From a virus, in IMG/VR virus record IMGVR_UViG_3300031920_000193: DNA of 64,000 bases. One strand, 5' to 3'. A program made the translations under genes and the position numbers. Positions 48,205 to 64,000 of the stretch are shown here, in pieces (the first letter of the stretch is position 1; each line of letters starts with the position of its first letter). The notes under the pieces were generated by a model. The model did not search any database, had not been told where the DNA came from, and was given only the letters and a program-made list of their open reading frames with translations.

Positions 48205-48832
48205 TTATATCTTTAATTGTTTCACTATAAACTCTTCATGCTTTTTATTATTATCTAATAGAGCAAAATTAATGTCTTTTATTCTGGCATAGTCATCATT
48301 CGTATCTATAGGGGTATTAAAAGGTACGTCTTTAAAATCAGAATAAACAATGGTATGTTTTAAATTATGCTCACTAATTAAATGATCATATTTACCACCA
48401 TAACTTGCTGTTAAAACCAAATTATCTGGTATCTCATTTATTCTATTTACCCAATAGTTAATACTCTTTGTAAATGCCCAAAATTCAATATCCGGGTTAG
48501 TCTTACAAATATCTAACCACATATCAAAATACTTTTGATTAAAAAAATCACCACTTGCATGTATTCTAACTGCTTTACACTTATTAGGTATTTCAGGTAT
48601 CTTACCTTCCTTAACATAATCAAAATTTCTCCATCGATGTTCCCTTACTGCAGGAAATCTCTCACTACTGGCAGCATAACACCTATATTTTGTGCTTAGA
48701 TTACTTACCAGTTTTCCTATCAACACATACCTTACATTCAACCGCAAATGGACATGCATGACCACTAGGTAAATTCCATTCATACACAATTGTACTGTAG
48801 TATGTTTTTTTTCTTATAAATTTATGTTCCAT
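48205..48832 (-). pseudogene. GP88-like Cys-cluster (radical-SAM-like) protein, frameshifted near 48703
   Basis: frame A 48832-48701 MEHK...WNLPSGHACPFAVEC...KTGK*; frame B continues NLSTKYRCYAASSERFP...RIHASGDFF...FWAFTKS. Confidence 0.8.
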
Positions 48833-53657: not shown

Positions 53658-54140
53658 CGGACATTGTTATATAATTTTTTATAGGGGAATGTAGTCCCCA
53701 CACACCAATCTCCCGCCCCCTTTTTAATATTCTAAATTAAAAATTATAAAAAATTATATATATTATCCCCCCGATCTCGCACCCCTTGTACAATGCCGGG
53801 TTACACATCGGACAATGTGTATGTCCCGGTCTCCAACCCCTAAAGTTTAGATTAAGATTTTCCTATAGGGATAAGTACATTGTAATCAGGACATTGTAAA
53901 ATAAAATTACTAAGGGGCGGGAGATTGTTGGACATTCTTAATTAAGAAATGTTTTTTAATTAAGATTATCTCACTCACCACAATGTGTATTATTAAAAAA
54001 TTCCTATACAGGGTTTTTGAGATTATAAAATAAAGATATATTTAAGGGGGTAGGAGATTGTCTTTTTTTTTAATTAAAACTTAATTCAGGTAGTGAGACT
54101 ACTTGTACATTGATTAATTTAATGTGGGTGGTATATACAT

Positions 54141-54190
54141 AAAAAAAAATCCTCTCTATGTTATATAATTAAAATACATAGAGAGGATTT
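54141..54190 (-). terminator. intrinsic terminator
   Basis: 15-bp IR aaatcctctctatgt/acatagagaggattt with U-tract on - strand. Confidence 0.85.
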
Positions 54191-54217
54191 ATAATATTAC
54201 TTAAGGGGTTGGAGATA

Positions 54218-54607
54218 TTAATTAATAGGATTGTGTTTTCTACGTTCGTATTCTTTTTCAAGACCTTCGATCTTCTTATCCCATTCTTGTTCATCATCAC
54301 ATTGTATCTCTGTCATGTGTACATTGAAGTCCGAATTATTTTCTTTATAGCCATAGTATGAATTCTCTTTGAAGTTGAATTTCATATCCAGCTTACTTAG
54401 TTGGTCCAATCTTTTTATTAATTGTTCATCCTCAACATGGTTTCCTGTTTTTGGTATGATGTACATTGACCCATCATCACCATCTGATTTCACTATTTTC
54501 AATGATCCAAATCTTTCACTTAAGGTGTATATTGTATTACCTATTTCAATAACTACCTGAGTAGTTTCAATAGTTTCTTCACCTCTTTTTACTTTACATT
54601 TTAACAT
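54218..54607 (-). CDS. hypothetical protein (start probably MLKCKVKR)
   Basis: ORF track extends to 54721, but that part overlaps the upstream gene and leader. Confidence 0.6.
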   Translation of the reverse strand: MLKCKVKRGEETIETTQVVIEIGNTIYTLSERFGSLKIVKSDGDDGSMYIIPKTGNHVEDEQLIKRLDQLSKLDMKFNFKENSYYGYKENNSDFNVHMTEIQCDDEQEWDKKIEGLEKEYERRKHNPIN

Positions 54608-54668
54608 AATCTTATTTTTAATTAATAATATTACACATACTAAGGGGGGTGAGATAGAGAGAGTATGT

Positions 54669-54875
54669 TTATTCTTCAAACCCTTCTTTAATGTCATTAC
54701 CAGCTTGTTTGACTTTATCAATTACTTGATATTCTTTCATGTCTTCAACAAGTTCTTTACTTTCTTTCCCCATGTTACTGAAGAAAGACTTTTCATTATC
54801 TTGAGTTGCTTGATATGCTTTCCAGCATACAAATACAACGATAATACCTATAACAATTTTTAATAATTTTTTCAT
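54669..54875 (-). CDS. small membrane-anchored protein
   Basis: MKKLLKIVIGIIVVFVCW. Confidence 0.7.
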   Translation of the reverse strand: MKKLLKIVIGIIVVFVCWKAYQATQDNEKSFFSNMGKESKELVEDMKEYQVIDKVKQAGNDIKEGFEE

Positions 54876-55015
54876 GATGTTTATGTTTTTTAAATTAATA
54901 CTATATTTATATTTATTGTGTGAGTGTACATTCTCCTACCCCTTGAGTAAATTCATATTCCACTCGGACATTGTATTCTTTTTATTGGTCATTATATTCT
55001 TTTTAATTAAAATGA

Positions 55016-55255
55016 TTATTTTTTCATACCAAACATGTTCATCAAATTATTTAATTCATCATCCCCCTTTATAAAATCATCGGACATTGTATCATCAATA
55101 TCTTTTATTTTTTGATCATTATTTATAATTATTTTATGGAAGATAATTTTTTTTATAAGCAATTCTTTAGCTTGTGGTTTATTTGATGCTGTTATTATGG
55201 TCTTCATTTTCTTTCCGAAGATTTCAAAGTAGATTATATATTCTTTATTTTTCAT
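55016..55255 (-). CDS. hypothetical protein
   Basis: ORF in - block. Confidence 0.65.
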   Translation of the reverse strand: MKNKEYIIYFEIFGKKMKTIITASNKPQAKELLIKKIIFHKIIINNDQKIKDIDDTMSDDFIKGDDELNNLMNMFGMKK

Positions 55256-55261
55256 ATTTGG

Positions 55262-55663
55262 TTAATTTTTATCATCAATATAGTGAACATCATCTCCTAT
55301 GATCGTAAAATTAGCTGGCTTCTCATCAACTAATAATTCCTCGAACATTTGTTTAGTTGTGATTGTAGGTTTGATCCTGTTGGTTTTACATATCTCCCGC
55401 CCCTTATAATAAACTATTCTTTCACGGGGGTTTGTGATCACTACCAGACCTTTATAATTATATTTGTATCCGGACAATGTAGTTGGTTCATCTAGATCAA
55501 TAATGTCAGTGCCATACTTTCTAGGGGGAAGAGATATCATATTTATGATCTTCCCGGTTGCAGCATTTGCAATCCTAAGAATATTAGGATTATCTTCTTC
55601 GAACGTTATTTTATATTTGTTTTCTACTATCATTGTGGACATTGTTTTAATTAATAATTCCAA
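55262..55663 (-). CDS. hypothetical protein
   Basis: ORF in - block. Confidence 0.65.
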   Translation of the reverse strand: MELLIKTMSTMIVENKYKITFEEDNPNILRIANAATGKIINMISLPPRKYGTDIIDLDEPTTLSGYKYNYKGLVVITNPRERIVYYKGREICKTNRIKPTITTKQMFEELLVDEKPANFTIIGDDVHYIDDKN

Positions 55664-55695
55664 TATATTTCAGGAACGTTATTTTTCATTAATAA

Positions 55696-56169
55696 TTACG
55701 GACATTCAATAATTCCATTACAATCCCATTTGATTTCTTTACCGGATGATTCTAATTCTTCGTAAAGATGATTATTAATATCAGAGGGGTTGATTGGAAA
55801 ATCTTCATGAAATAGAAAATGTTTATCCCATGCTTCCATTTGTTCTCTAATTCTTTTAACAGCTTCCTTAGTATTGTTTTTACCTTTTAATAAGATAATT
55901 TCTTCAACAATACCACCATCAGATATAATAATAACTTCTACTTCTCTAAGTACTTTCATATCTATAGGAGAACCACATACTAAACAAGTACCGTTTAAAA
56001 TAGGTGATTCTGTTTCACAAGCCGGACATTGTTCAAAACTCACTTCTTTATAATCAGGATTGTTATTTTGTATTTGTTTATTTACGTGCTTAAATACTGA
56101 AGTTTGTCCATGCTTATTATAAATGTTTTCACATTTATCATATACTTTATTTTGTTCTTTTATTTTCAC
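55696..56169 (-). CDS. Zn-finger protein with C-terminal module shared with 63474-63992
   Basis: CPAC...CLVC; start probably GTG 56169 (track gives 56286); ends GKEIKW...ECP. Confidence 0.7.
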   Translation of the reverse strand: MKIKEQNKVYDKCENIYNKHGQTSVFKHVNKQIQNNNPDYKEVSFEQCPACETESPILNGTCLVCGSPIDMKVLREVEVIIISDGGIVEEIILLKGKNNTKEAVKRIREQMEAWDKHFLFHEDFPINPSDINNHLYEELESSGKEIKWDCNGIIECP

Positions 56170-56266
56170 GATATATTTATTTTTAATTAAGATTTGTTTT
56201 TCATTCTCCTGCCACTTAGTAAAAATAAAGTAAGAGTACAATGTGTATACTCTTACTATAGTTATC

Positions 56267-57055
56267 TTATGCAATTGTTTGTACATTAACTTTCTCTACG
56301 AAACAACTGTTTTTAATAATCTCACTATTTTCTCTGTTGGCAATTTCTTTAAATTTAAGACCAACAACAACGCCATATCCATCATTAGGACGATAATCTG
56401 TAAGGTCACCATCAATAACTTTATAGCCGTTCCATGTTTCAGGTAAACCACCAGTAAATACTACTGCTACATTACCACCACAAGCCAAATGTGATTTGCA
56501 AATTTCAGTATTTTTACCTGTATGGGATAATGTAATGTGATAATTTTCAGGTAGTTTTTTAATCAAACGACTTGCATTTTTGGTATAATCATAAAATTGT
56601 ACATCTGAAAATATTTCAAAGATAGTCAGACCGTTATATTTTACGTTTTCCCAAACAATATCACTTGTACCATTAAGACGTACAGAAAAATAAAATCCTT
56701 CTCTTTCTGCTTTTTTCTTTGAACTTTTAATTTCTTCAATCATCCACTGCATGAAAAAATCTTGTTCCTCAAAGAATAATTTTGTCTTAACTGTTCTTGC
56801 ATTTTGAATACGGTTCATCCCTGCCCACAATTCAAGTTTGTTTCTACCACTTGTAGATAAACAACCTAAACGACATTCAGGTGTACTATGTGAACAAACA
56901 TTATAACCCGATGTATTTGCGGGTGCTAAATAGATAATGTAAGTGTACATTTTAGAAACCTCTTTACTATGTACTAATTTAGCTGAAATATTAATACCAC
57001 CTAAATAAGATAATCTTGTTTCTCTTGTTGCTGCTGCTCTTGTTGTAAATTTCAT
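56267..57055 (-). CDS. GP88/DUF7227-like Cys-cluster (radical-SAM-like) phage protein
   Basis: YLAPANTSGYNVCSHSTPECRLGCL, VRLNGTSDI, QFYDYTK, GNVAVVF, DGDLTDYR, VVGLKFK; start moved to ATG 57055 after the AAACGCAAAA leader. Confidence 0.8.
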   Translation of the reverse strand: MKFTTRAAATRETRLSYLGGINISAKLVHSKEVSKMYTYIIYLAPANTSGYNVCSHSTPECRLGCLSTSGRNKLELWAGMNRIQNARTVKTKLFFEEQDFFMQWMIEEIKSSKKKAEREGFYFSVRLNGTSDIVWENVKYNGLTIFEIFSDVQFYDYTKNASRLIKKLPENYHITLSHTGKNTEICKSHLACGGNVAVVFTGGLPETWNGYKVIDGDLTDYRPNDGYGVVVGLKFKEIANRENSEIIKNSCFVEKVNVQTIA

Positions 57056-57099
57056 GATTTTTGCGTTTATGTGAATACTGTATTTATACACTACTTTAG

Positions 57100-57127
57100 T
57101 ATACGATAAAAACACCAAAAAGTTACA
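57100..57127 (-). promoter_or_regulatory. cassette promoter TGTAAC-N16-CGTATA
   Basis: exact consensus. Confidence 0.8.
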
Positions 57128-57209
57128 TTCGATTGCCGTTTTTATTGCCGGACATTGCCGGATAATAATCTTAATTAAGAATATCATTGACACTGATTGC
57201 CGTTTTTAA

Positions 57210-57539
57210 TTAAGAAAACAATTCCTTCAATTTTTTTTGTTGACTAATTTTTTCAAGTACATCTTTTAATGTTAGTCTTTCAATGTAATTAAATTCCCAA
57301 CAATCACCAACCTCTAAATGAATTATTTCAAGGGGTTTAATTGAACATACCATGTACATTGCTTTACCGTCAGCAACAGGAAAATAAATAATTTCACCAA
57401 CGTACTTATCATTGCTCTGACTTAAACAAAATTGTTTAATCTCTTCAATGTATCTCTCTTCATCTTTTTTCCATGCTTTAATATCTTTCCAATTTAAAAC
57501 AGGTTTTTTAATGTGTTCCGGTGCTGAATATACTTTCAT
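57210..57539 (-). CDS. hypothetical protein
   Basis: YFPVADGKAMYMV motif. Confidence 0.75.
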   Translation of the reverse strand: MKVYSAPEHIKKPVLNWKDIKAWKKDEERYIEEIKQFCLSQSNDKYVGEIIYFPVADGKAMYMVCSIKPLEIIHLEVGDCWEFNYIERLTLKDVLEKISQQKKLKELFS

Positions 57540-57588
57540 GATTTTATGTTTTAAATTTATATTGTGATAATTATTTTAATTAAAAACT

Positions 57589-58035
57589 CTACTCTTCATC
57601 CTGTAAGTGAACATCATTTTCATCTTTACCCAAAGTATCAACAGCATAGTCTTGAATATCATCAATCATATGTAGAATACCTGTAAGATTACCCTCTAAT
57701 TCACTACCACCATCAACATGATTAATAACATCAACTAATGATTTCTTTTGTTCTCTTAACATAGGAAAATCAATCTTTGCAATTGGGTTTCCCTCTGTGA
57801 AACTCTTAATTAAAGTTTCCATTTGGTCAGCTTCATTTTCAATTGTTTCAATAAGTGTTTTAACTAACCAATCTTGCACTTGTTCCCATAGGTAAACATG
57901 ATTATTTGCAAAGTCAGATTTGTTTTCGACCTCAGTTAATTTAATATAACCATCGTAATGGTCTTTACCTTCTTCTGCTTCACAAAAATAAGTTCCTGCA
58001 ACAAGATTAATACATTTTCTTCTTAAATTTTTCAT
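57589..58035 (-). CDS. hypothetical protein (cassette gene)
   Basis: AAACGCAAAA leader and own promoter. Confidence 0.75.
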   Translation of the reverse strand: MKNLRRKCINLVAGTYFCEAEEGKDHYDGYIKLTEVENKSDFANNHVYLWEQVQDWLVKTLIETIENEADQMETLIKSFTEGNPIAKIDFPMLREQKKSLVDVINHVDGGSELEGNLTGILHMIDDIQDYAVDTLGKDENDVHLQDEE

Positions 58036-58081
58036 TTTGTTTTGCGTTTATGTTAATACTATATTTATACTCTTATTTTAT

Positions 58082-58125
58082 TATACGAAAACCCCCTTAA
58101 AAGGTTACACTTCTAAGGGGGTTTT
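58082..58125 (-). promoter_or_regulatory. cassette promoter embedded in 12-bp stem-loop
   Basis: boxes 58082-87 and 58104-09; IR 58088-58099/58114-58125. Confidence 0.8.
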
Positions 58126-58133
58126 TATTGTTT

Positions 58134-58379
58134 TTAGATGAAAAACTTATTCATTATTTTATGTTCTCCCTCTGTCATTTCAATGACTTTTACAACTCTC
58201 ATTGCCATAACACCTTTTGCCCACCACCATTCATCAATATGGGAATCAGCACCCCAATATTGTGATACAAATCTTTCAGCAGCAAAATTAATGTTCTTTG
58301 CATTTGTTGTGTGTTGTACCCTGTGAGTGTGTCTGTTTTCACCGTCTTGTACTTCTAACTCAATAAATAAATGTTTCAT
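58134..58379 (-). CDS. hypothetical protein (cassette gene)
   Basis: leader and own promoter. Confidence 0.75.
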   Translation of the reverse strand: MKHLFIELEVQDGENRHTHRVQHTTNAKNINFAAERFVSQYWGADSHIDEWWWAKGVMAMRVVKVIEMTEGEHKIMNKFFI

Positions 58380-58436
58380 GATTGTTTTGCGTTTAATTAA
58401 TAATATATTTATACTTTCTCTCTCTTACTACTTTAG

Positions 58437-58484
58437 TATACGAAAAAAAACCCCAAAGGTTACAAATCTTTAGGGTTTTTTTTC
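58437..58484 (-). promoter_or_regulatory. cassette promoter embedded in stem-loop
   Basis: boxes 58437-42 and 58459-64; aaaaaaaccccaaag/ctttagggttttttt IR. Confidence 0.8.
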
Positions 58485-58507
58485 CAACTGTAGCTTATTG
58501 TTTTTAA

Positions 58508-59128
58508 TTAAAAGTTTAAGCTAATTCCTACTTTAAATCTTTTCTCGTCAGTTTCAGCAAACTTGTATCTTACATAGTATGGTGGCTGTACCTCATTCAC
58601 AACCCAATTATAAAGAACGTCAAATAGTTCTGCTTTGGTCGTGTTCTCAGTATCACTAGCAACGGCATATTTGAAACCTCTACGTTTACTAGTTTCTAAC
58701 CAATCAAAATAAAATACATTGGTTCTTACACCGTAACCTTTGTACAAATGATGTGAAGCTAATTCTTTTAATGCTTTCTTAGACATTTTCTTAACTGGTT
58801 TTTCAACAACTGTTTTAATTTCATCAACCATTTTACCATGAACATAAGACATAAATGTACCATCTTCATTAATTTCTTGATTGTTAAATAAATCCATAAA
58901 TTCAGTAATTGGATATACAGTAATATATTTTTGTTTACTTATAGGTATTTCAAGTTCCTCAATGATACCTAATCTAACCTTATCTGCAATTATAATAACA
59001 TCATGTATATCTTCAATAATAACTAGAATTTGATATACTTTGTTTTCAATACTCTCAGCATATTTTCTACTGTCATCAAATCCATTAACATTAAATAATA
59101 CTACGAATGTGTTTTTTAAATTTTTCAT
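58508..59128 (-). CDS. hypothetical protein (cassette gene)
   Basis: leader and own promoter. Confidence 0.75.
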   Translation of the reverse strand: MKNLKNTFVVLFNVNGFDDSRKYAESIENKVYQILVIIEDIHDVIIIADKVRLGIIEELEIPISKQKYITVYPITEFMDLFNNQEINEDGTFMSYVHGKMVDEIKTVVEKPVKKMSKKALKELASHHLYKGYGVRTNVFYFDWLETSKRRGFKYAVASDTENTTKAELFDVLYNWVVNEVQPPYYVRYKFAETDEKRFKVGISLNF

Positions 59129-59160
59129 GATTTTGCGTTTTTAAGTTTATACTACTTTAG

Positions 59161-59188
59161 TATACGGACATTATTCAAAAAGGTTACA
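59161..59188 (-). promoter_or_regulatory. cassette promoter with GGACATT site
   Basis: exact consensus. Confidence 0.8.
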
Positions 59189-59224
59189 CCCGAAAGGGTA
59201 TATTTTATTATATTGTACATTGTT

Positions 59225-59376
59225 TTAATTAAGATTAATACCGAGAGGGTATAAAAGAGTAGACCCTGCACGGATTTTGAGTTACCGTGTCAGGGTCTGA
59301 GTATAAATCTAAACGCAAATTTAGAATCTTTAATGTTTTACTTTTGTGTTTTACCCTCTGCGTTTATATCTTATAC
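59225..59376 (-). ncRNA. candidate small RNA cassette with anti-leader loop
   Basis: own promoter; no ORF; hairpins 59261-59298 and 59308-59325; long-range helix 59244-51/59352-59. Confidence 0.7.
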
Positions 59377-59381
59377 TTTAT

Positions 59382-59409
59382 TATACGATGATTTTGTTAA
59401 ATAGTTACA
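59382..59409 (-). promoter_or_regulatory. cassette promoter driving the small RNA
   Basis: TGTAAC-N16-CGTATAAT. Confidence 0.8.
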
Positions 59410-59590
59410 ATCTGAACCTTCTTTTTTTTTTATCATCCATTGGTAAATCTTCAGTTATTGTATTTCCTAATACCCAATCAAGTGCATTTTTAACACCTGC
59501 TTCATAACTCATTCCCGGAAACTTTGAATTGTGTTCAGTTTCTGTTGCTTTATCAATTTGATCATAAATTTCATCTTCAGTTTTTGTCAT
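59405..59590 (-). CDS. hypothetical protein
   Basis: SKFPGMSYEAGVKNALDWV; variant leader AAACGTAGAAATC. Confidence 0.7.
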   Translation of the reverse strand: MTKTEDEIYDQIDKATETEHNSKFPGMSYEAGVKNALDWVLGNTITEDLPMDDKKKRRFRL

Positions 59591-59622
59591 GATTTCTACG
59601 TTTAAATTTTTAATTAAGATTA

Positions 59623-59964
59623 TTATACAACTTCATCTTCAACGTCTGCACCAAACGATGCTTCAAGTGATTCAATACATTCATCATCACCTTCCCAAAC
59701 TCTTTGCCAAAAGTTTTGTGCATTGTTTAATGAACCTTTAGAACCATCTTCTAATACACCACGTGGTGGAATAGTATTACCGTAATAGTCTCTTGTTAGT
59801 TTTTCACCTAAGAAACAAATACCTGCTTCTAAACAACTCATTGCAAATCTACCTGCTGAACCTTCGAATTTCCAGATATCACCAGTTTCAATACTTTGTT
59901 GGGTTGGTGTTACATTATAACCCTCTTGTAATTTTCTAATTTCTTCAATTGTAATTGTCTTCAT
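59623..59964 (-). CDS. hypothetical protein (cassette gene)
   Basis: WKFEGSAGRFAMSCLEAGICFL...DYYGN motif; leader and promoter. Confidence 0.8.
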   Translation of the reverse strand: MKTITIEEIRKLQEGYNVTPTQQSIETGDIWKFEGSAGRFAMSCLEAGICFLGEKLTRDYYGNTIPPRGVLEDGSKGSLNNAQNFWQRVWEGDDECIESLEASFGADVEDEVV

Positions 59965-60010
59965 GATTTTGCGTTTTATGTTTATACTATATTTACACTC
60001 TCTATATTAG

Positions 60011-60038
60011 TATACGAACATTGTTCAAAAAGGTTACA
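60011..60038 (-). promoter_or_regulatory. cassette promoter containing palindrome GAACATTGTTC
   Basis: exact consensus. Confidence 0.8.
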
Positions 60039-60043
60039 TATAA

Positions 60044-60295
60044 TTAGATCAAAATTGGTTTTTCTGTAACAAATCTAAAACAACTCATGCTTTTTTTATT
60101 ACCATCACTATCCATTGAGTACAATACATTACTATCAGGTGTGAGTAGATATGAGTACATTGTATCATCAATAGTTAGTACAATGACCTTACCCCCAAAG
60201 TGAACATTGTATATCTGTGTACAATCATTTTCCATGACATTAACACTATAATGTCTTACCGGATTTTGTTGTGATATGTATTGTTGGAAATTCAT
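60044..60295 (-). CDS. hypothetical protein
   Basis: ORF in cassette array. Confidence 0.65.
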   Translation of the reverse strand: MNFQQYISQQNPVRHYSVNVMENDCTQIYNVHFGGKVIVLTIDDTMYSYLLTPDSNVLYSMDSDGNKKSMSCFRFVTEKPILI

Positions 60296-60335
60296 TATTT
60301 TAATTAAAACATTTCATGATATTTTTAATTAAGAT

Positions 60336-60491
60336 TTATCTCCTGCCCCTTTTTGATCTTCTTCTTTGACTTGCATAAGTTTGATGTGTATGCTTTCTCG
60401 GAATAAAGATTGCTGAACCACCAGACATTTCAATAATTGGTCTGTAATACATTCTACTCATTGCTGAAATTGCTTCAATAATTCTTCTCAT
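60336..60491 (-). CDS. 51-aa Arg-rich peptide (cassette gene, below track cut-off)
   Basis: MRRIIEAISAMSRMYYRPIIEMSGGSAIFIPRKHTHQTYASQRRRSKRGRR; leader and promoter. Confidence 0.7.
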   Translation of the reverse strand: MRRIIEAISAMSRMYYRPIIEMSGGSAIFIPRKHTHQTYASQRRRSKRGRR

Positions 60492-60527
60492 GATTTTGCG
60501 TTTTTAAGTTTATACTCTTTATATTAT

Positions 60528-60570
60528 TATACGACAAAACCCTCAAAAGGTTACAACCTAATGAGGGTTT
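60528..60570 (-). promoter_or_regulatory. cassette promoter embedded in stem-loop
   Basis: boxes 60528-33 and 60550-55; IR 60537-45/60562-70. Confidence 0.8.
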
Positions 60571-60599
60571 CTATCAACCTACATCAAAAATCCCCAAAC

Positions 60600-60764
60600 C
60601 TAATATTGATTTAACCATTCAATATAGCTACCAACTAAAAATGGTTTTTTAATACGATTTTTCATTCCCTTTATTTTTTTGAATACTTTAACACCGGAAC
60701 TGAAATTCTTATTCTTTTCATCTTTGAATTTGTTAGCTTCTTTTCTTGTTTTAAAATGTCTCAT
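60600..60764 (-). CDS. 54-aa Lys-rich peptide (cassette gene, below track cut-off)
   Basis: MRHFKTRKEANKFKDEKNKNFSSGVKVFKKIKGMKNRIKKPFLVGSYIEWLNQY; leader and promoter. Confidence 0.7.
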   Translation of the reverse strand: MRHFKTRKEANKFKDEKNKNFSSGVKVFKKIKGMKNRIKKPFLVGSYIEWLNQY

Positions 60765-60801
60765 GATAATATGATTTGCGTTTATACTGTCTCTACTTTA
60801 G

Positions 60802-60848
60802 TATACGAAAATATCCCCAAAAGGTTACAACCTAATGAGGATATTTTT
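60802..60848 (-). promoter_or_regulatory. cassette promoter embedded in stem-loop
   Basis: boxes 60802-07 and 60824-29. Confidence 0.8.
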
Positions 60849-60882
60849 CAAACGGACACCTAATATTTTTTTAATTAAAATT

Positions 60883-61131
60883 CTACTCACCTACTACGGC
60901 ATCACCTAAAAATGTAACTGATTCTAAATAACCCTTATATTCTTCTGAAAAATAAAGTTCAATAACCTCATTATCATCTTTAGGGATTGTTACTGCATCA
61001 TCAATTTCATGCCACCACTCACGACAAAAATTTGCCACTTGTTTATTAAGTCCTTCTTCTGTTCTTGATACATAAACATTATCACCGTGTCTATGTGATA
61101 TTGTTGCAACATATACTGTTATTTTTCTCAT
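60883..61131 (-). CDS. hypothetical protein (cassette gene)
   Basis: leader and promoter. Confidence 0.75.
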   Translation of the reverse strand: MRKITVYVATISHRHGDNVYVSRTEEGLNKQVANFCREWWHEIDDAVTIPKDDNEVIELYFSEEYKGYLESVTFLGDAVVGE

Positions 61132-61182
61132 AATTTTGCGTTTTTAATTTATACTATATATATATTTCTTTCTCTACTTTAG

Positions 61183-61227
61183 TATACGAAAATATCCTCA
61201 AAAGGTTACAACCTAATGAGGATATTT
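61183..61227 (-). promoter_or_regulatory. cassette promoter embedded in 11-bp stem-loop
   Basis: boxes 61183-88 and 61205-10; IR 61190-61200/61217-61227. Confidence 0.8.
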
Positions 61228-61249
61228 ATCAACCAAAATCAAAACAACA

Positions 61250-61480
61250 TTATGCTTTCTTTATTTCTTCAATGACCTTTTTTGCTGTTAATTTTTTCCA
61301 ATTTAAAATCTGACCTGTTTCAATGTCAATATCTAAATCAACATAATCACCACCCCCAAGATTAAGGTTCTGTGGAACATAACTATCACTTTCGACAATT
61401 ACATTATCATTTTCATCTACGTATTGAGTACAACAAAGGTCTGAACATTTTGCACTAATTGATAATACTTTTTTTCCCAT
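61250..61480 (-). CDS. hypothetical protein (cassette gene)
   Basis: AKCSDLC...YVPQNL..GGGDYVDLDIDIETGQILNWK motif. Confidence 0.8.
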   Translation of the reverse strand: MGKKVLSISAKCSDLCCTQYVDENDNVIVESDSYVPQNLNLGGGDYVDLDIDIETGQILNWKKLTAKKVIEEIKKA

Positions 61481-61511
61481 GATTTCTTGCGTTAAGTTTA
61501 TACTATCTTAA

Positions 61512-61539
61512 TATACGAACATTATACAATAAGGTTACA
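61512..61539 (-). promoter_or_regulatory. cassette promoter
   Basis: exact consensus. Confidence 0.8.
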
Positions 61540-61776
61540 TTATAATGTTAGTTTTTTCACTCATTAACTCACTTTTTAGGGGTTAGTGAATGGTTTCTCA
61601 CTCATTAGTTTTAATTAAGATTGTGTTATTTTTGTTCTCCTTGTGATTGCTACCCCTCTTCTTCTCGGTAGAAGTTTATTCTCAGTACCTTTTTTATTTT
61701 ATAGTACCTACTTTTATTCAAATCTCTTAAACTTCAATCTATTCAAACATTTTAAAGAACACTTTCTATATATTAG

Positions 61777-61804
61777 TATACGAATTTTGATCGAAAAGGT
61801 TACA
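61777..61804 (-). promoter_or_regulatory. cassette promoter with no downstream ORF
   Basis: exact consensus. Confidence 0.75.
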
Positions 61805-61805
61805 C

Positions 61806-62222
61806 TTAATATCTACATTTAGTAGTTCCCTCAGTTAAATTTTCTCTTTCCCCATCTGAAAGGTAATTAAGTAAAATATCCCTGCTCACATTATTTTTAA
61901 TTAATAATTCTAACACTTCGGATAATGCAGTAAAGTCCTGTGCATTAAAATCTCTTTCAATCTCATTTAATACACCATGTTCTAATGGCTTAAAGAATTC
62001 TTTATCTTCTTTGTATTTCCAGTACAATTTAAATACCTCCTTACAGGTCTCACACTTCGTATGTGATACTTCAATATCATTTTCTTCACCAACCCACTCA
62101 ATAATACTGAACACCTGTAAATGATGTCTTTGTTCATCAATGGATTGTTGTTCACAATTTTTACAATGTGGACAAGTTACAAATACATCTGTTAAGTCGT
62201 TATCAATATAAGATTTTTTCAT
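61806..62222 (-). CDS. Zn-ribbon protein (cassette gene)
   Basis: CPHC...CETC. Confidence 0.75.
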   Translation of the reverse strand: MKKSYIDNDLTDVFVTCPHCKNCEQQSIDEQRHHLQVFSIIEWVGEENDIEVSHTKCETCKEVFKLYWKYKEDKEFFKPLEHGVLNEIERDFNAQDFTALSEVLELLIKNNVSRDILLNYLSDGERENLTEGTTKCRY

Positions 62223-62253
62223 GATTTTGCGTTTTAAGTTTATACTACTTTAG

Positions 62254-62281
62254 TATACGGACATTGTTCAAAAAGGTTACA
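62254..62281 (-). promoter_or_regulatory. cassette promoter with CGGACATTGTTC site
   Basis: exact consensus. Confidence 0.8.
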
Positions 62282-62323
62282 AAAATTAAGCGGAATGTAT
62301 AAAATAATTACACATTCCGCTTA
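62282..62323 (-). terminator. intrinsic terminator abutting next promoter
   Basis: 12-bp IR taagcggaatgt/acattccgctta. Confidence 0.8.
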
Positions 62324-62335
62324 GTATATTTTTAA

Positions 62336-62734
62336 TTAAGATTTACTGATATAAGATATGACAACATTAAAACCATTTTCTATGTTTTCATAATCATAGT
62401 TTATGGTAATTTTATATTGTTGAGTATAGCTACTATTACCAACTATAAATTGAGTATCTTCAACACATATATTAACACATTCTTCTAATGTTTCTTCAAG
62501 AATTTTAATTAAATCATCATCAGATAAATCATCTTGAGATTTTTTACTCATAAATTTCTCAAACATTTCTTTAGAGCATCTTTCACTTTCATTTTCAAAA
62601 CCTAACTTTAGAGTATCTTCTCTAAAATATTCTTCATTCTCTGAAAAGTCGGAATCGTTATCAAATAATTCAACAAACATTTTTTCGTTAAATTCATTTA
62701 TATCAAACGTTATTACTTTTAAATTTACTTGCAT
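62336..62734 (-). CDS. acidic hypothetical protein
   Basis: ORF in cassette array. Confidence 0.7.
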   Translation of the reverse strand: MQVNLKVITFDINEFNEKMFVELFDNDSDFSENEEYFREDTLKLGFENESERCSKEMFEKFMSKKSQDDLSDDDLIKILEETLEECVNICVEDTQFIVGNSSYTQQYKITINYDYENIENGFNVVISYISKS

Positions 62735-62772
62735 AATATTTATTTTTGGTTTATATTTTTAATTAAGAATTA

Positions 62773-63357
62773 TTATTCTTCAATCTCAATAAGTTTACCA
62801 TCTTTCCCCTCAATAAATTGAAAGTCGTTTTCATCTTCCCACTCTGTCCAATATATACTATAATGATTGTAAGCAATATCAAACATCCTGTCCTCTGTGA
62901 TAGTCGGTAATTCATTTTTGAATTGTTCATCTTGTGCAATAATATCTTTGACGTGTTTAACAATGTCTTCATGTTTTTTGATGTAACTAATTGTTTTATG
63001 ATTTTCATCATACCAACCTGAATTCATTCCCTCACCTGTAATATCACATTTTCTTCCCCATTTTGTTCCCTCACCTGTATTACTCACCTCAATTAAGTGG
63101 TCAATAAGTGATATTAAATCAGTTATTGGTAAAACATCGTGTCCACAAACATAACCTTGATTATCAATTAAAGTACCTTTGCTAATTTCAGTTAAGTATC
63201 TACCACCATCAAGATTAAACATAAAATCATCTGCTTCAATCTTTAATACTTTCGTATTACTATATTTACTCTCAACCCCGTGAATATCAATAAGGTTTTG
63301 AAGTTCAGCAATTGCTTCAATAACTATTGCAATTAATTTATTAGTTAAATTTCTCAT
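62773..63357 (-). CDS. hypothetical protein (cassette gene)
   Basis: leader and promoter; RKCDITGEGMNSGWY motif. Confidence 0.75.
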   Translation of the reverse strand: MRNLTNKLIAIVIEAIAELQNLIDIHGVESKYSNTKVLKIEADDFMFNLDGGRYLTEISKGTLIDNQGYVCGHDVLPITDLISLIDHLIEVSNTGEGTKWGRKCDITGEGMNSGWYDENHKTISYIKKHEDIVKHVKDIIAQDEQFKNELPTITEDRMFDIAYNHYSIYWTEWEDENDFQFIEGKDGKLIEIEE

Positions 63358-63392
63358 GATTTTGCGTTTTAAGTTTATACTCTCTATATTAT

Positions 63393-63420
63393 TATACGGA
63401 CATTGTTCAAAAAGGTTACA
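63393..63420 (-). promoter_or_regulatory. cassette promoter with CGGACATTGTTC site
   Basis: exact consensus. Confidence 0.8.
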
Positions 63421-63473
63421 TAATAATCAGGTTAATCCTGACAATATTACTATGAAAGATTTTTAATTAATAA

Positions 63474-64000
63474 TTACGGACATTCTGTTAGTGCTGAACC
63501 TTCCCACTTGATTTCTTTACCAGTACCATCTAATAATTCATAACACTCATTTTCCATATCATCATTTGAAATATCAAGCGGTAACTCATAACCCCACTTT
63601 GTCATTTGTTCTCTGATTATTTTAACAACAACTTCCACTCTTTTAACACCTGACAATAAAGTATGACTTTCAATTAAACCACCTTCTAAAATAGTAATGA
63701 TTTCAACCTCAATAGATTTTTCAATCTCTGAACCACATTCTGCAACAATATCAACCCCAAAATAATTATCAGGATTACCAATACAAATATGCTCACTAAT
63801 TACAATTTCATCACTTGTATCAATTTCACCATCTTTTACACCATATAAACATACCGTTGGTTCTTGCTGTTTATCTTCTTGGTGAAAATTAACATCTTTT
63901 ACAATACCACTTGTCCACCAATTGGTTTTTTTATTGGTTAGGGTATTCCAAAAATCTCCAACATCACCATCATTTAAATTTAAAACAAACACTTCATTCT
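63474..64000 (-). CDS. hypothetical protein, 5'-truncated by window edge; C-terminal module shared with 55696-56169
   Basis: frame open to the window end; ends GKEIKWEGSALTECP. Confidence 0.7.
   Translation of the reverse strand, partial: NEVFVLNLNDGDVGDFWNTLTNKKTNWWTSGIVKDVNFHQEDKQQEPTVCLYGVKDGEIDTSDEIVISEHICIGNPDNYFGVDIVAECGSEIEKSIEVEIITILEGGLIESHTLLSGVKRVEVVVKIIREQMTKWGYELPLDISNDDMENECYELLDGTGKEIKWEGSALTECP

Follow-up and report, generated by a model that had tools for sequence, protein, structure and literature searches.

The closest described counterparts of the locus discussed here are the promoter-stem-loop elements (PeSLs) of T4-type phages, modules of ~60-110 bp in which a terminator stem-loop, a promoter and a leader run into the ATG of a gene (Arbiol et al. 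2010, PMC2839356; Comeau et al. 2014, PMC4122927). Our locus is an array of small genes at positions 57055-63470 of the IMG/VR record IMGVR_UViG_3300031920_000193, a stretch of viral DNA of 64,000 nucleotides that we call the window. An initial annotation, made from the letters alone, had proposed that these genes are self-contained cassettes with a regulatory grammar of their own, and this is supported by the terminator, promoter and leader modules that recur through the array and by the same grammar in a relative. To our knowledge, all PeSLs described to date come from T4-type phages of Proteobacteria and have sigma-70-like promoters. We read the array, with a probability of about 0.7, as a hyperplastic phage region in which small genes and two RNAs form independent cassettes that are shuffled through the repeats at their boundaries.

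Each boundary is built from up to four elements: a gene-end motif, often a terminator hairpin, a promoter of the extracytoplasmic function (ECF) type, and a leader of the form GTATAAAC..AAAACGCAAAATC-AUG. The hairpin would act as an intrinsic terminator, with the -35 box in its loop and with its 3' arm and U-run making up the promoter spacer, and the promoters would be read by RNA polymerase carrying an ECF-type sigma factor, which could be the phage's own or come from the host. At 60-110 bp, the repeats could serve as homology patches for the phage recombination machinery, with unequal exchange between copies inserting, deleting or swapping cassettes. Every product of such an exchange would still be transcribed, translated and insulated, as PeSL products are in T4-type phages.

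Boundary repeats of the array

The promoter pattern TGTAAC-N16-CGTATA has 20 exact matches in the window, compared with none in 100 shuffles. Thirteen of them had been placed in the array by the initial annotation, and all 13 lie exactly where it put them, on the minus strand between 57100 and 63420. Their density is 2.0/kb in the array against 0.12/kb in the remaining 57.6 kb. The extended form is TGTAAC(C)TTTT-N-CGTATA(A/C)T; AAC-N16-CGTA is present in 20/20 window sites, a T-tract follows the AAC in most of them, and two further sites have N17. Two of the array promoters (61777-61804 and 59382-59409) have no open reading frame (ORF) behind them. The seven matches outside the array lack the common leader. 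Both rIIA and rIIB are preceded by an array-type promoter, which, by analogy with T4, hints that this promoter class might be expressed before replication.

The boundary copies had been described as almost identical. This holds for three of them: from promoter to ATG, over 62-63 nt, the copy at 62281 shares 97% identity with that at 59188, and the copy at 63420 is 89-91% identical to both. It does not hold for the rest, which are 57-88% identical. Logan contigs of the source sample end in the 97%-identical copies, at 59143-59168 and 62236-62245, showing that the repeats are long enough to break short-read assemblies. A scan with a promoter-plus-leader pattern returned only two phage contigs, both unrelated.

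In the promoter spacers at 63393, 62254, 60011, 59161 and 61512, a motif ACA(A/T)TGT(C/T)CG adjoins the -10 box. It is present outside promoters too, at 57150 and 55647 of the window, and has further copies on the related contigs L022 and L016 introduced below; in L022 this spacer class is kept as CAATGTACG. The motif may be an operator for a regulator.

Eleven array genes share the leader GTATAAAC..AAACGCAAAATC-ATG, in the form GTATAAAC(TT)AAAACGCAAAATC followed by ATG. These are the 11 leader-ATG starts first noted from the letters; AAACGCAA stands before 10 of the 11, and the start at 61480 carries the variant TAACGCAAG. A twelfth copy, seen on the Logan contig L030, heads a 277-aa gene that runs off the end of the window, and because this gene has the common leader the array continues upstream. 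All 15 array genes have an A at -3; 13 have one at -6, 13 at -12 and 14 at -13, where the background frequency of A is 0.37. None of the 15 has a Shine-Dalgarno-like sequence. In Flavobacterium johnsoniae, A at -3, -6, -12 and -13 are positive determinants of translation (PMC6847099). Judged by these positions, the array leader fits the Bacteroidia rule for translation starts. Searches with leader-only patterns found no match in IMG/VR or in the JGI metagenomes.

At the other end of the genes stands the motif (T)CTTAATTAAAAA, within which TTAATTAA is an 8-bp palindrome. The palindrome occurs 25 times in 53900-64000, where a first-order Markov model predicts 2.2, a tenfold enrichment, and 21 times in the rest of the window (14.3 expected). 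That units usually end in this motif was borne out: it lies within 6 nt of the stop codon, or overlaps it, in 10 of 15 array genes, and both ORF-less units also end in it. The palindrome supplies stop codons in two frames on both strands. Hairpins had likewise been reported at unit boundaries, and stem-loops are indeed found at eight of the 13 promoters. Five of these, with stems of 10-17 bp and a U-run, enclose the -35 box in the loop (-19 to -23 kcal/mol, z -5.2 to -7.4), and three lie just upstream of the promoter. Read along the minus strand, a boundary starts with the stop codon, which (T)CTTAATTAAAAA usually follows; then come, in many cases, a stem-loop, and after it the promoter, the leader and the ATG.

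Gene turnover and junctions within the repeats

Searching with the 206-aa and 194-aa ORFs identified a relative, R, in one other sample, JGI 3300082323. It consists of the JGI contigs L031 and L016, which overlap by exactly 127 bp and give a joined length of 25,974 bp. Its 30 strict promoters share one strand, and it has the common leader and 59 copies of TTAATTAA where 6.4 are expected. From the 194-aa gene to the GP88 gene, the window has 6.3 kb with 15 protein genes and two RNA units, and R has 12.5 kb with ~35 protein genes. About nine genes are shared and collinear; seven are private to the window and ~24 to R. Three R array genes have their window counterparts at other places, at 54.7, 47.8 and 44-45 kb. 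Gene content and order, which the initial annotation expected to vary, thus differ between these relatives, and a fixed order and content is not what the comparison shows: whole cassettes have been gained, lost, replaced or moved in dozens of cases. The nine shared genes have a synonymous divergence (dS) of ~0.5-1.3 and a ratio of nonsynonymous to synonymous divergence (dN/dS) of 0.11-0.50, which indicates that the ORFs are real genes under purifying selection.

One slot illustrates the turnover. Between the 148-aa gene and GP88, contig L021 has no gene, the window has a 109-aa gene flanked by direct TTTTTAATTAAAA repeats, and R has a 68-aa gene, unrelated to it, between direct copies of a 40-nt promoter-leader repeat that differ at one position. 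L022 is more distant (GP88 63% identical), and its homolog of the 148-aa gene is found across GP88, on the downstream side. L022 has 23 promoters and 26 copies of TTAATTAA in 16 kb and keeps both spacer classes, the hairpin class and the CAATGT(A/C)CG class. Its leader is different, ACAAACTAAAAC; as L022 keeps the grammar but not the leader, each lineage has its own homogenised leader. The promoter modules also move relative to the genes. For three of the nine orthologous genes the modules of window and R are at non-orthologous positions, the window's GP88 promoter is most like the promoter of a different gene in R, and one spacer version is found in six R copies.

The initial annotation had proposed recombination between the repeats, and at least two indels between the window and R have their crossover inside the promoter-leader repeat. 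From the upstream hairpin through TGTAACCTTTT the element at 59188 corresponds to copy R19273, and from CGTATA through the leader and ATG it corresponds to R19485; in R these copies are separated by a 46-aa cassette. The element at 60555 follows R13139 through the hairpin, the -10 box and the first bases of the leader and then follows R13568, placing the crossover in the -10/leader stretch, and between these two R copies lie two genes and a promoter. Both junctions are the products expected of homologous exchange between tandem copies. Their position in the element agrees with that of the crossovers sequenced in PeSL mini-circles, which fall in the stretch from the -10 box to the ATG (Arbiol et al. 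2010, PMC2839356).

The units are listed below in the direction of transcription; "window-only" marks genes absent from R.

63474-64000, minus strand: 3' part of the 277-aa gene, whose start lies beyond the window; leader on L030; R ortholog of 287 aa, 75% aa identity.
62773-63470, minus strand: cassette 1, with TTAATTAA 63463-63470, a 6-bp stem-loop 63426-63442, promoter 63393-63420, leader and ORF 62773-63357 (194 aa; R ortholog 88% aa identical, dN/dS 0.11).
62336-62766, minus strand: cassette 2, without its own promoter; TTAATTAA 62759-62766 and ORF 62336-62734 (132 aa); window-only.
61806-62323, minus strand: cassette 3, with a 16-bp terminator hairpin 62287-62323, promoter 62254-62281, leader and ORF 61806-62222 (138 aa); window-only.
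61611-61804, minus strand: ORF-less cassette, non-coding RNA 2, with promoter 61777-61804 and ~165 nt that end in TTAATTAA 61611-61618.
61250-61539, minus strand: cassette 4, with promoter 61512-61539, variant leader and ORF 61250-61480 (76 aa); window-only.
60871-61229, minus strand: cassette 5, with a terminator hairpin round the -35 box 61187-61229 (z -7.4), promoter 61183-61210, ORF 60883-61131 (82 aa) and TTAATTAA 60871-60878; R ortholog 64% aa identical, under a different promoter class.
60600-60848, minus strand: cassette 6, with a hairpin round the -35 box 60806-60848 (z -6.5), promoter 60802-60829 and ORF 60600-60764 (54 aa); window-only.
60300-60574, minus strand: cassette 7, with a hairpin round the -35 box 60532-60574 (z -5.7), promoter 60528-60555, ORF 60336-60491 (51 aa) and two TTAATTAA copies, 60325-60332 and 60300-60307.
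60044-60295, minus strand: cassette 8, without its own promoter; 83-aa ORF, R ortholog 74% aa identical, dN/dS 0.21.
59610-60038, minus strand: cassette 9, with promoter 60011-60038, leader, ORF 59623-59964 (113 aa) and TTAATTAA 59610-59617; window-only.
59405-59590, minus strand: cassette 10, without its own promoter; 61-aa ORF; window-only.
59225-59409, minus strand: ORF-less cassette, non-coding RNA 1, with promoter 59382-59409 and ~150 nt that end in TTAATTAA 59225-59232.
58504-59202, minus strand: cassette 11, with a 7-bp stem-loop 59185-59202, promoter 59161-59188, leader, ORF 58508-59128 (206 aa) and TTAATTAA 58504-58511.
58134-58486, minus strand: cassette 12, with a hairpin round the -35 box 58438-58486 (z -5.2), promoter 58437-58464 and ORF 58134-58379 (81 aa).
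57576-58130, minus strand: cassette 13, with a hairpin round the -35 box 58084-58130 (z -5.2), promoter 58082-58109 (92% identical to its ortholog R21060), ORF 57589-58035 (148 aa; homologs in L016, L021 and L022) and TTAATTAA 57576-57583.
57171-57539, minus strand: cassette 14, without its own promoter; ORF 57210-57539 (109 aa), TTAATTAA 57206-57213 and 57171-57178; window-only, in the variable slot.
56267-57127, minus strand: last promoter-leader unit, with promoter 57100-57127, leader and ORF 56267-57055 (262 aa, GP88; PF17338, E 3.9e-37; 6570 homologs; 86% aa identity in R), a conserved synteny anchor.

Three of the proteins indicate, from alignment, that the small array proteins are themselves modular. 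In the 206-aa ORF of cassette 11, two genes that stand apart in R are fused. The 81-aa ORF of cassette 12 matches the C-terminal part of a 153-aa R gene, which has 70 extra residues. The 138-aa ORF of cassette 3 has two domains, and its halves are found separately or in other fusions in 139 representative metagenome proteins. As first noted, the enclosed ORFs are unrelated to one another, and in Pfam and PHROG searches the array ORFs belonged to no family. The ESM Atlas gave no lead to the function or fold of any of them, so these searches speak neither for nor against the host-takeover or anti-defence role that the initial annotation had inferred.

The two ORF-less units are almost the same in R, while neighbouring synonymous sites differ by ~40% between the window and R, and we conclude that both are conserved RNAs. 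RNA 1 has a core of ~95 nt that is 100% identical in R (L031 19036-19272). RNA 2 is ~94% identical to R over ~165 nt, and two of its ~10 differences are compensatory pair changes from A-U to G-C, one in each of two helices, so it is probably a structured small RNA. The loop of RNA 1 and the shared leader have a 9-nt complement (UUUGCGUUU / AAACGCAAA), which is conserved in R; the L022 homolog shows no clear covariation for this pairing, and the 5' end of RNA 1 itself carries the same AAACGCA, making intramolecular pairing an alternative. Look-alikes of RNA 1, of the GGGTAAAAC...GCGGTGCAGTAATCC type, stand behind the same promoter in L022 (9119-9260 and 13843-13955) and in the contig L041.

Several observations weigh against shuffling through the repeats. 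Only one close relative was present in the collections searched, and at a dS of ~0.6 the events separating it from the window are old; R was itself joined from two contigs across an overlap that contains a repeat. The coincidence of breakpoints with motifs is weak alone, because the intergenic DNA is nearly all motif, leaving only the two chimeric junctions as specific. One large difference, where R has 1.6 kb and the window 13 nt, has TTAATTAA copies at its flanks and is not a clean repeat-to-repeat product. The evidence from the source run consists of assembled contigs only, which break at the repeats and show "joints" from paralogous repeats; neither population variants nor intermediates of recombination were seen. 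A search of the window's genes found no sigma gene in its 64 kb. The repeats could instead be expression signals maintained by selection and nothing more, with the genes turned over by illegitimate recombination, homing endonucleases or exchange of larger blocks. Function could explain the identity of the copies, as L022, with a GP88 identity of 63%, still has the two spacer classes and the whole grammar; about half of the orthologous promoters are still mutual best matches, one large indel is no clean product of the repeats, and both the window and L022 have HNH endonuclease genes. However, function alone does not require the identical spacers seen in up to six R copies; the two junctions are exact chimeras of tandem copies that switch in a shared core, and a third insertion has the 40-nt direct repeat at its flanks. 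Selection on signals alone seems to us rather unlikely to account for the array.

The palindrome offers another possibility, an integron-like platform in which TTAATTAA with its A-run is the site for a site-specific recombinase or nuclease and the promoters are cargo. Its enrichment in the array extends to R and L022, and as it ends ORF-less cassettes too it is not merely a translational stop. Direct copies of the motif flank the window-only 109-aa cassette, and a 42-aa gene found in different places in the window and R has the same TTAATTAAAAATATC-ATG head in both. The clean junctions, though, lie in the promoter-leader repeat and not at TTAATTAA, and neither a recombinase nor an integrase was found in the window. 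The palindrome could just as well signal the end of a gene, mark where RNA is processed, or provide unstructured A/U-rich sequence that helps the next gene to be translated. We consider an integron-like platform improbable. Part of the array could also be an artefact, if near-identical repeats misled the metagenome assembler into linking blocks that belong to different places or strains and the array as given is no single real molecule. Independent Logan contigs do break at 59143-59168, at 62236-62245 and in the leader upstream of the 277-aa gene, and a contig of equal depth has a look-alike promoter beside a paralog of 54715-54844. Against this, depth is uniform across the blocks (15-16.5), their order matches the collinearity of the genes shared with R, whose sample and assembly are different ones, and the motifs themselves do not depend on the joins; a partial artefact is the least credible of these explanations.

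Promoter class, candidate sigma factors and host

AAC-N16-CGT is a hallmark of group 4 sigma promoters. The sigma-W-type consensus is tGAAACnTTTt...CGTA, with the T-tract beside the -35 box (Gaballa et al. 2017, PMC5758882). From its boxes and spacing, the array promoter has the ECF sigma form and not that of a T4 or sigma-70 promoter. The T4-type PeSL promoter suggested by the initial annotation was thus not upheld: the form is ECF, a sigma-70 scan is at chance level, and the motif precedes bacterial ECF sigma genes. The sigma-70 consensus scan of the region gave 46 sites where 45.4 were expected and did not pick the array promoters. A sigma-70 reading was rejected as it would put TATAAT at a spacing of 18-19 nt, TATA always has CG in front of it and the scan shows no excess. 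The Bacteroidota housekeeping promoter has the consensus TTTG / TAnnTTTG and was also rejected, TGTAAC...CGTATA being unlike it.

Scanning 185,579 species genomes with the extended motif gave 19 contigs, 15 of them labelled Bacteroidota. In L047, a Porphyromonadaceae metagenome-assembled genome (MAG), and in a second MAG, L035, the motif lies directly 5' of an ECF sigma gene; both proteins passed the TIGR02937 sigma70-ECF model. An ECF sigma gene behind its own promoter is the usual autoregulatory layout. Six further matches lie ~30-60 nt upstream of a 287-aa rpoD-family gene on Flavobacteriaceae/Bacteroidota contigs, one of them 793 kb long. At these loci (L050 5554-6471; also L037, L038, L042, L043 and L048) the motif reads TGTAACCTTTT-N-CGTATAATAA. 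Their position suggests that rpoD in Flavobacteriaceae/Bacteroidota could be driven by a conserved host ECF sigma.

Phages also encode candidate readers. Each of four IMG/VR phage contigs encodes a Sigma70_r2 protein, and three of the four use the motif, one of them with 24 sites, all on one strand. The one phage sigma tested has regions 2 and 4_2, an ECF architecture, with SigW models as its best NCBIfam matches. A small sigma gene with regions 2 and 4 only is present on a relative's contig. The gene of the tested sigma, in L023, is preceded by a weaker variant, TGCAAC-N16-CGTACA.

Related phages from three samples (L018, L019 and L020; 39% G+C), with a GP88 63% identical and rIIA and rIIB downstream, encode an ECF-type sigma. 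They have no TGTAAC...CGTATA sites, no TTAATTAA motif and no AAACGCAA leader, from which we conclude that the grammar is lineage-specific. Two contigs labelled as bacterial do have it: L041 (145 kb, labelled Saccharibacteria) has nine strict promoters within 8 kb and L046 (24.7 kb, labelled Chloroherpeton) 13 within 8 kb, with small ORFs behind them in both. These are probably phage contigs of the window phage's clade that were misbinned into bacterial genomes. The clade is widespread in sediments and other metagenomes.

The window has a G+C content of 28% and encodes rIIA, rIIB, RtcB, an RNA ligase, a dNMP phosphatase, an HNH endonuclease, ParB-like proteins and two GP88-family proteins. The second, shorter GP88-family gene, at 48205-48789 on the minus strand (PF17338, E 4.9e-30), lies 8 kb downstream of the first. 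A search of the window found no tRNA genes and no Rfam families. The array DNA matched none of 50,697 phage records in near or distant mode, and an rIIA-based search of IMG/VR found no relative. The closest cultured rIIA is 25% identical, cultured homologs of rIIA and GP88 are all <41% identical, and the sequencing runs that contain window DNA are marine sediment metagenomes only. By these comparisons the window is part of a large uncultured phage. Of the traits of T4-type phages, the window has rIIA and rIIB, and none of the T4 core genes is found within it. The A positions of the leader, the taxonomy of the motif matches and the MAG labels on GP88 homologs make a Bacteroidota host likely.

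One further idea would join the palindrome to the host. A phage protein might bind TTAATTAA(AAA) for cassette exchange or transcript cutting, and the promoters might belong to the host's envelope-stress ECF regulon, so that injection of the DNA would switch the library on before any phage protein is made. We regard this combination as quite unlikely.

Comparison with known systems

Like an integron, the array is a one-directional row of short, unrelated, exchangeable cassettes, each ending in a short palindromic motif. It differs in having neither an integrase, in the window as searched, nor an attC-like folded site, the cassette end being an 8-bp palindrome. Most of its cassettes also have their own promoter, and the junctions have the form of homologous-recombination products in the promoter repeat.

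The host-takeover module of the Bacillus phage SPO1 and the pre-early region of T5 are clusters of small genes with a strong promoter per gene, read by the host's primary sigma. The array resembles them in that its small genes are closely packed, face one way and in many cases have a strong promoter each. We know of no description of a shared leader, a gene-end palindrome or a -35 box in a terminator loop in the SPO1 and T5 clusters.

With ECF promoters such as those of Bacillus subtilis sigma-W as well as sigma-X and sigma-V (PMC5758882), the array shares the ...AAC -35 box, the T-tract, the 16-nt spacing and the CGTA -10 box. The difference lies in its use, 13 times in 6.4 kb of phage DNA, in one piece with terminators and with a leader common to the copies. 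This gives a sharply defined promoter consensus for a clade of phages with ECF-type sigmas of their own. As the motif also stands before host rpoD genes, the reader and the timing of the array promoters are directly testable, and the promoter-leader unit could serve as a compact expression part for Bacteroidota.

The likeness to PeSLs is more extensive. In both, composite modules are repeated in regions of small genes without relatives, each gene is an insulated transcription unit, cassettes are inserted, deleted or replaced between relatives, and crossovers fall between the -35/-10 boxes and the ATG. Yet the array promoter has the ECF form (AAC...CGTA), whereas the PeSL promoter is a sigma-70-like early promoter (TTGACA-N17-TATAAT or a close variant). 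In five array copies the stem-loop encloses the -35 box, which in PeSLs lies downstream of it. The array leader has no Shine-Dalgarno sequence, following the Bacteroidia rule, and the array adds the gene-end palindrome TTAATTAA and cassettes that contain only an RNA. The array is thus a PeSL system in its structure and its behaviour between relatives, but not in its promoter, which is not of the sigma-70 type. What is new is that the promoter is of the ECF type and that it is linked to rpoD and ECF sigma genes of hosts. The logic of PeSLs, portable modules that both express and shuffle accessory genes, has here been rebuilt from an ECF promoter, a leader without a Shine-Dalgarno sequence and an 8-bp palindrome, which points to regulatory repeats having come into use as recombination handles convergently or very long ago.

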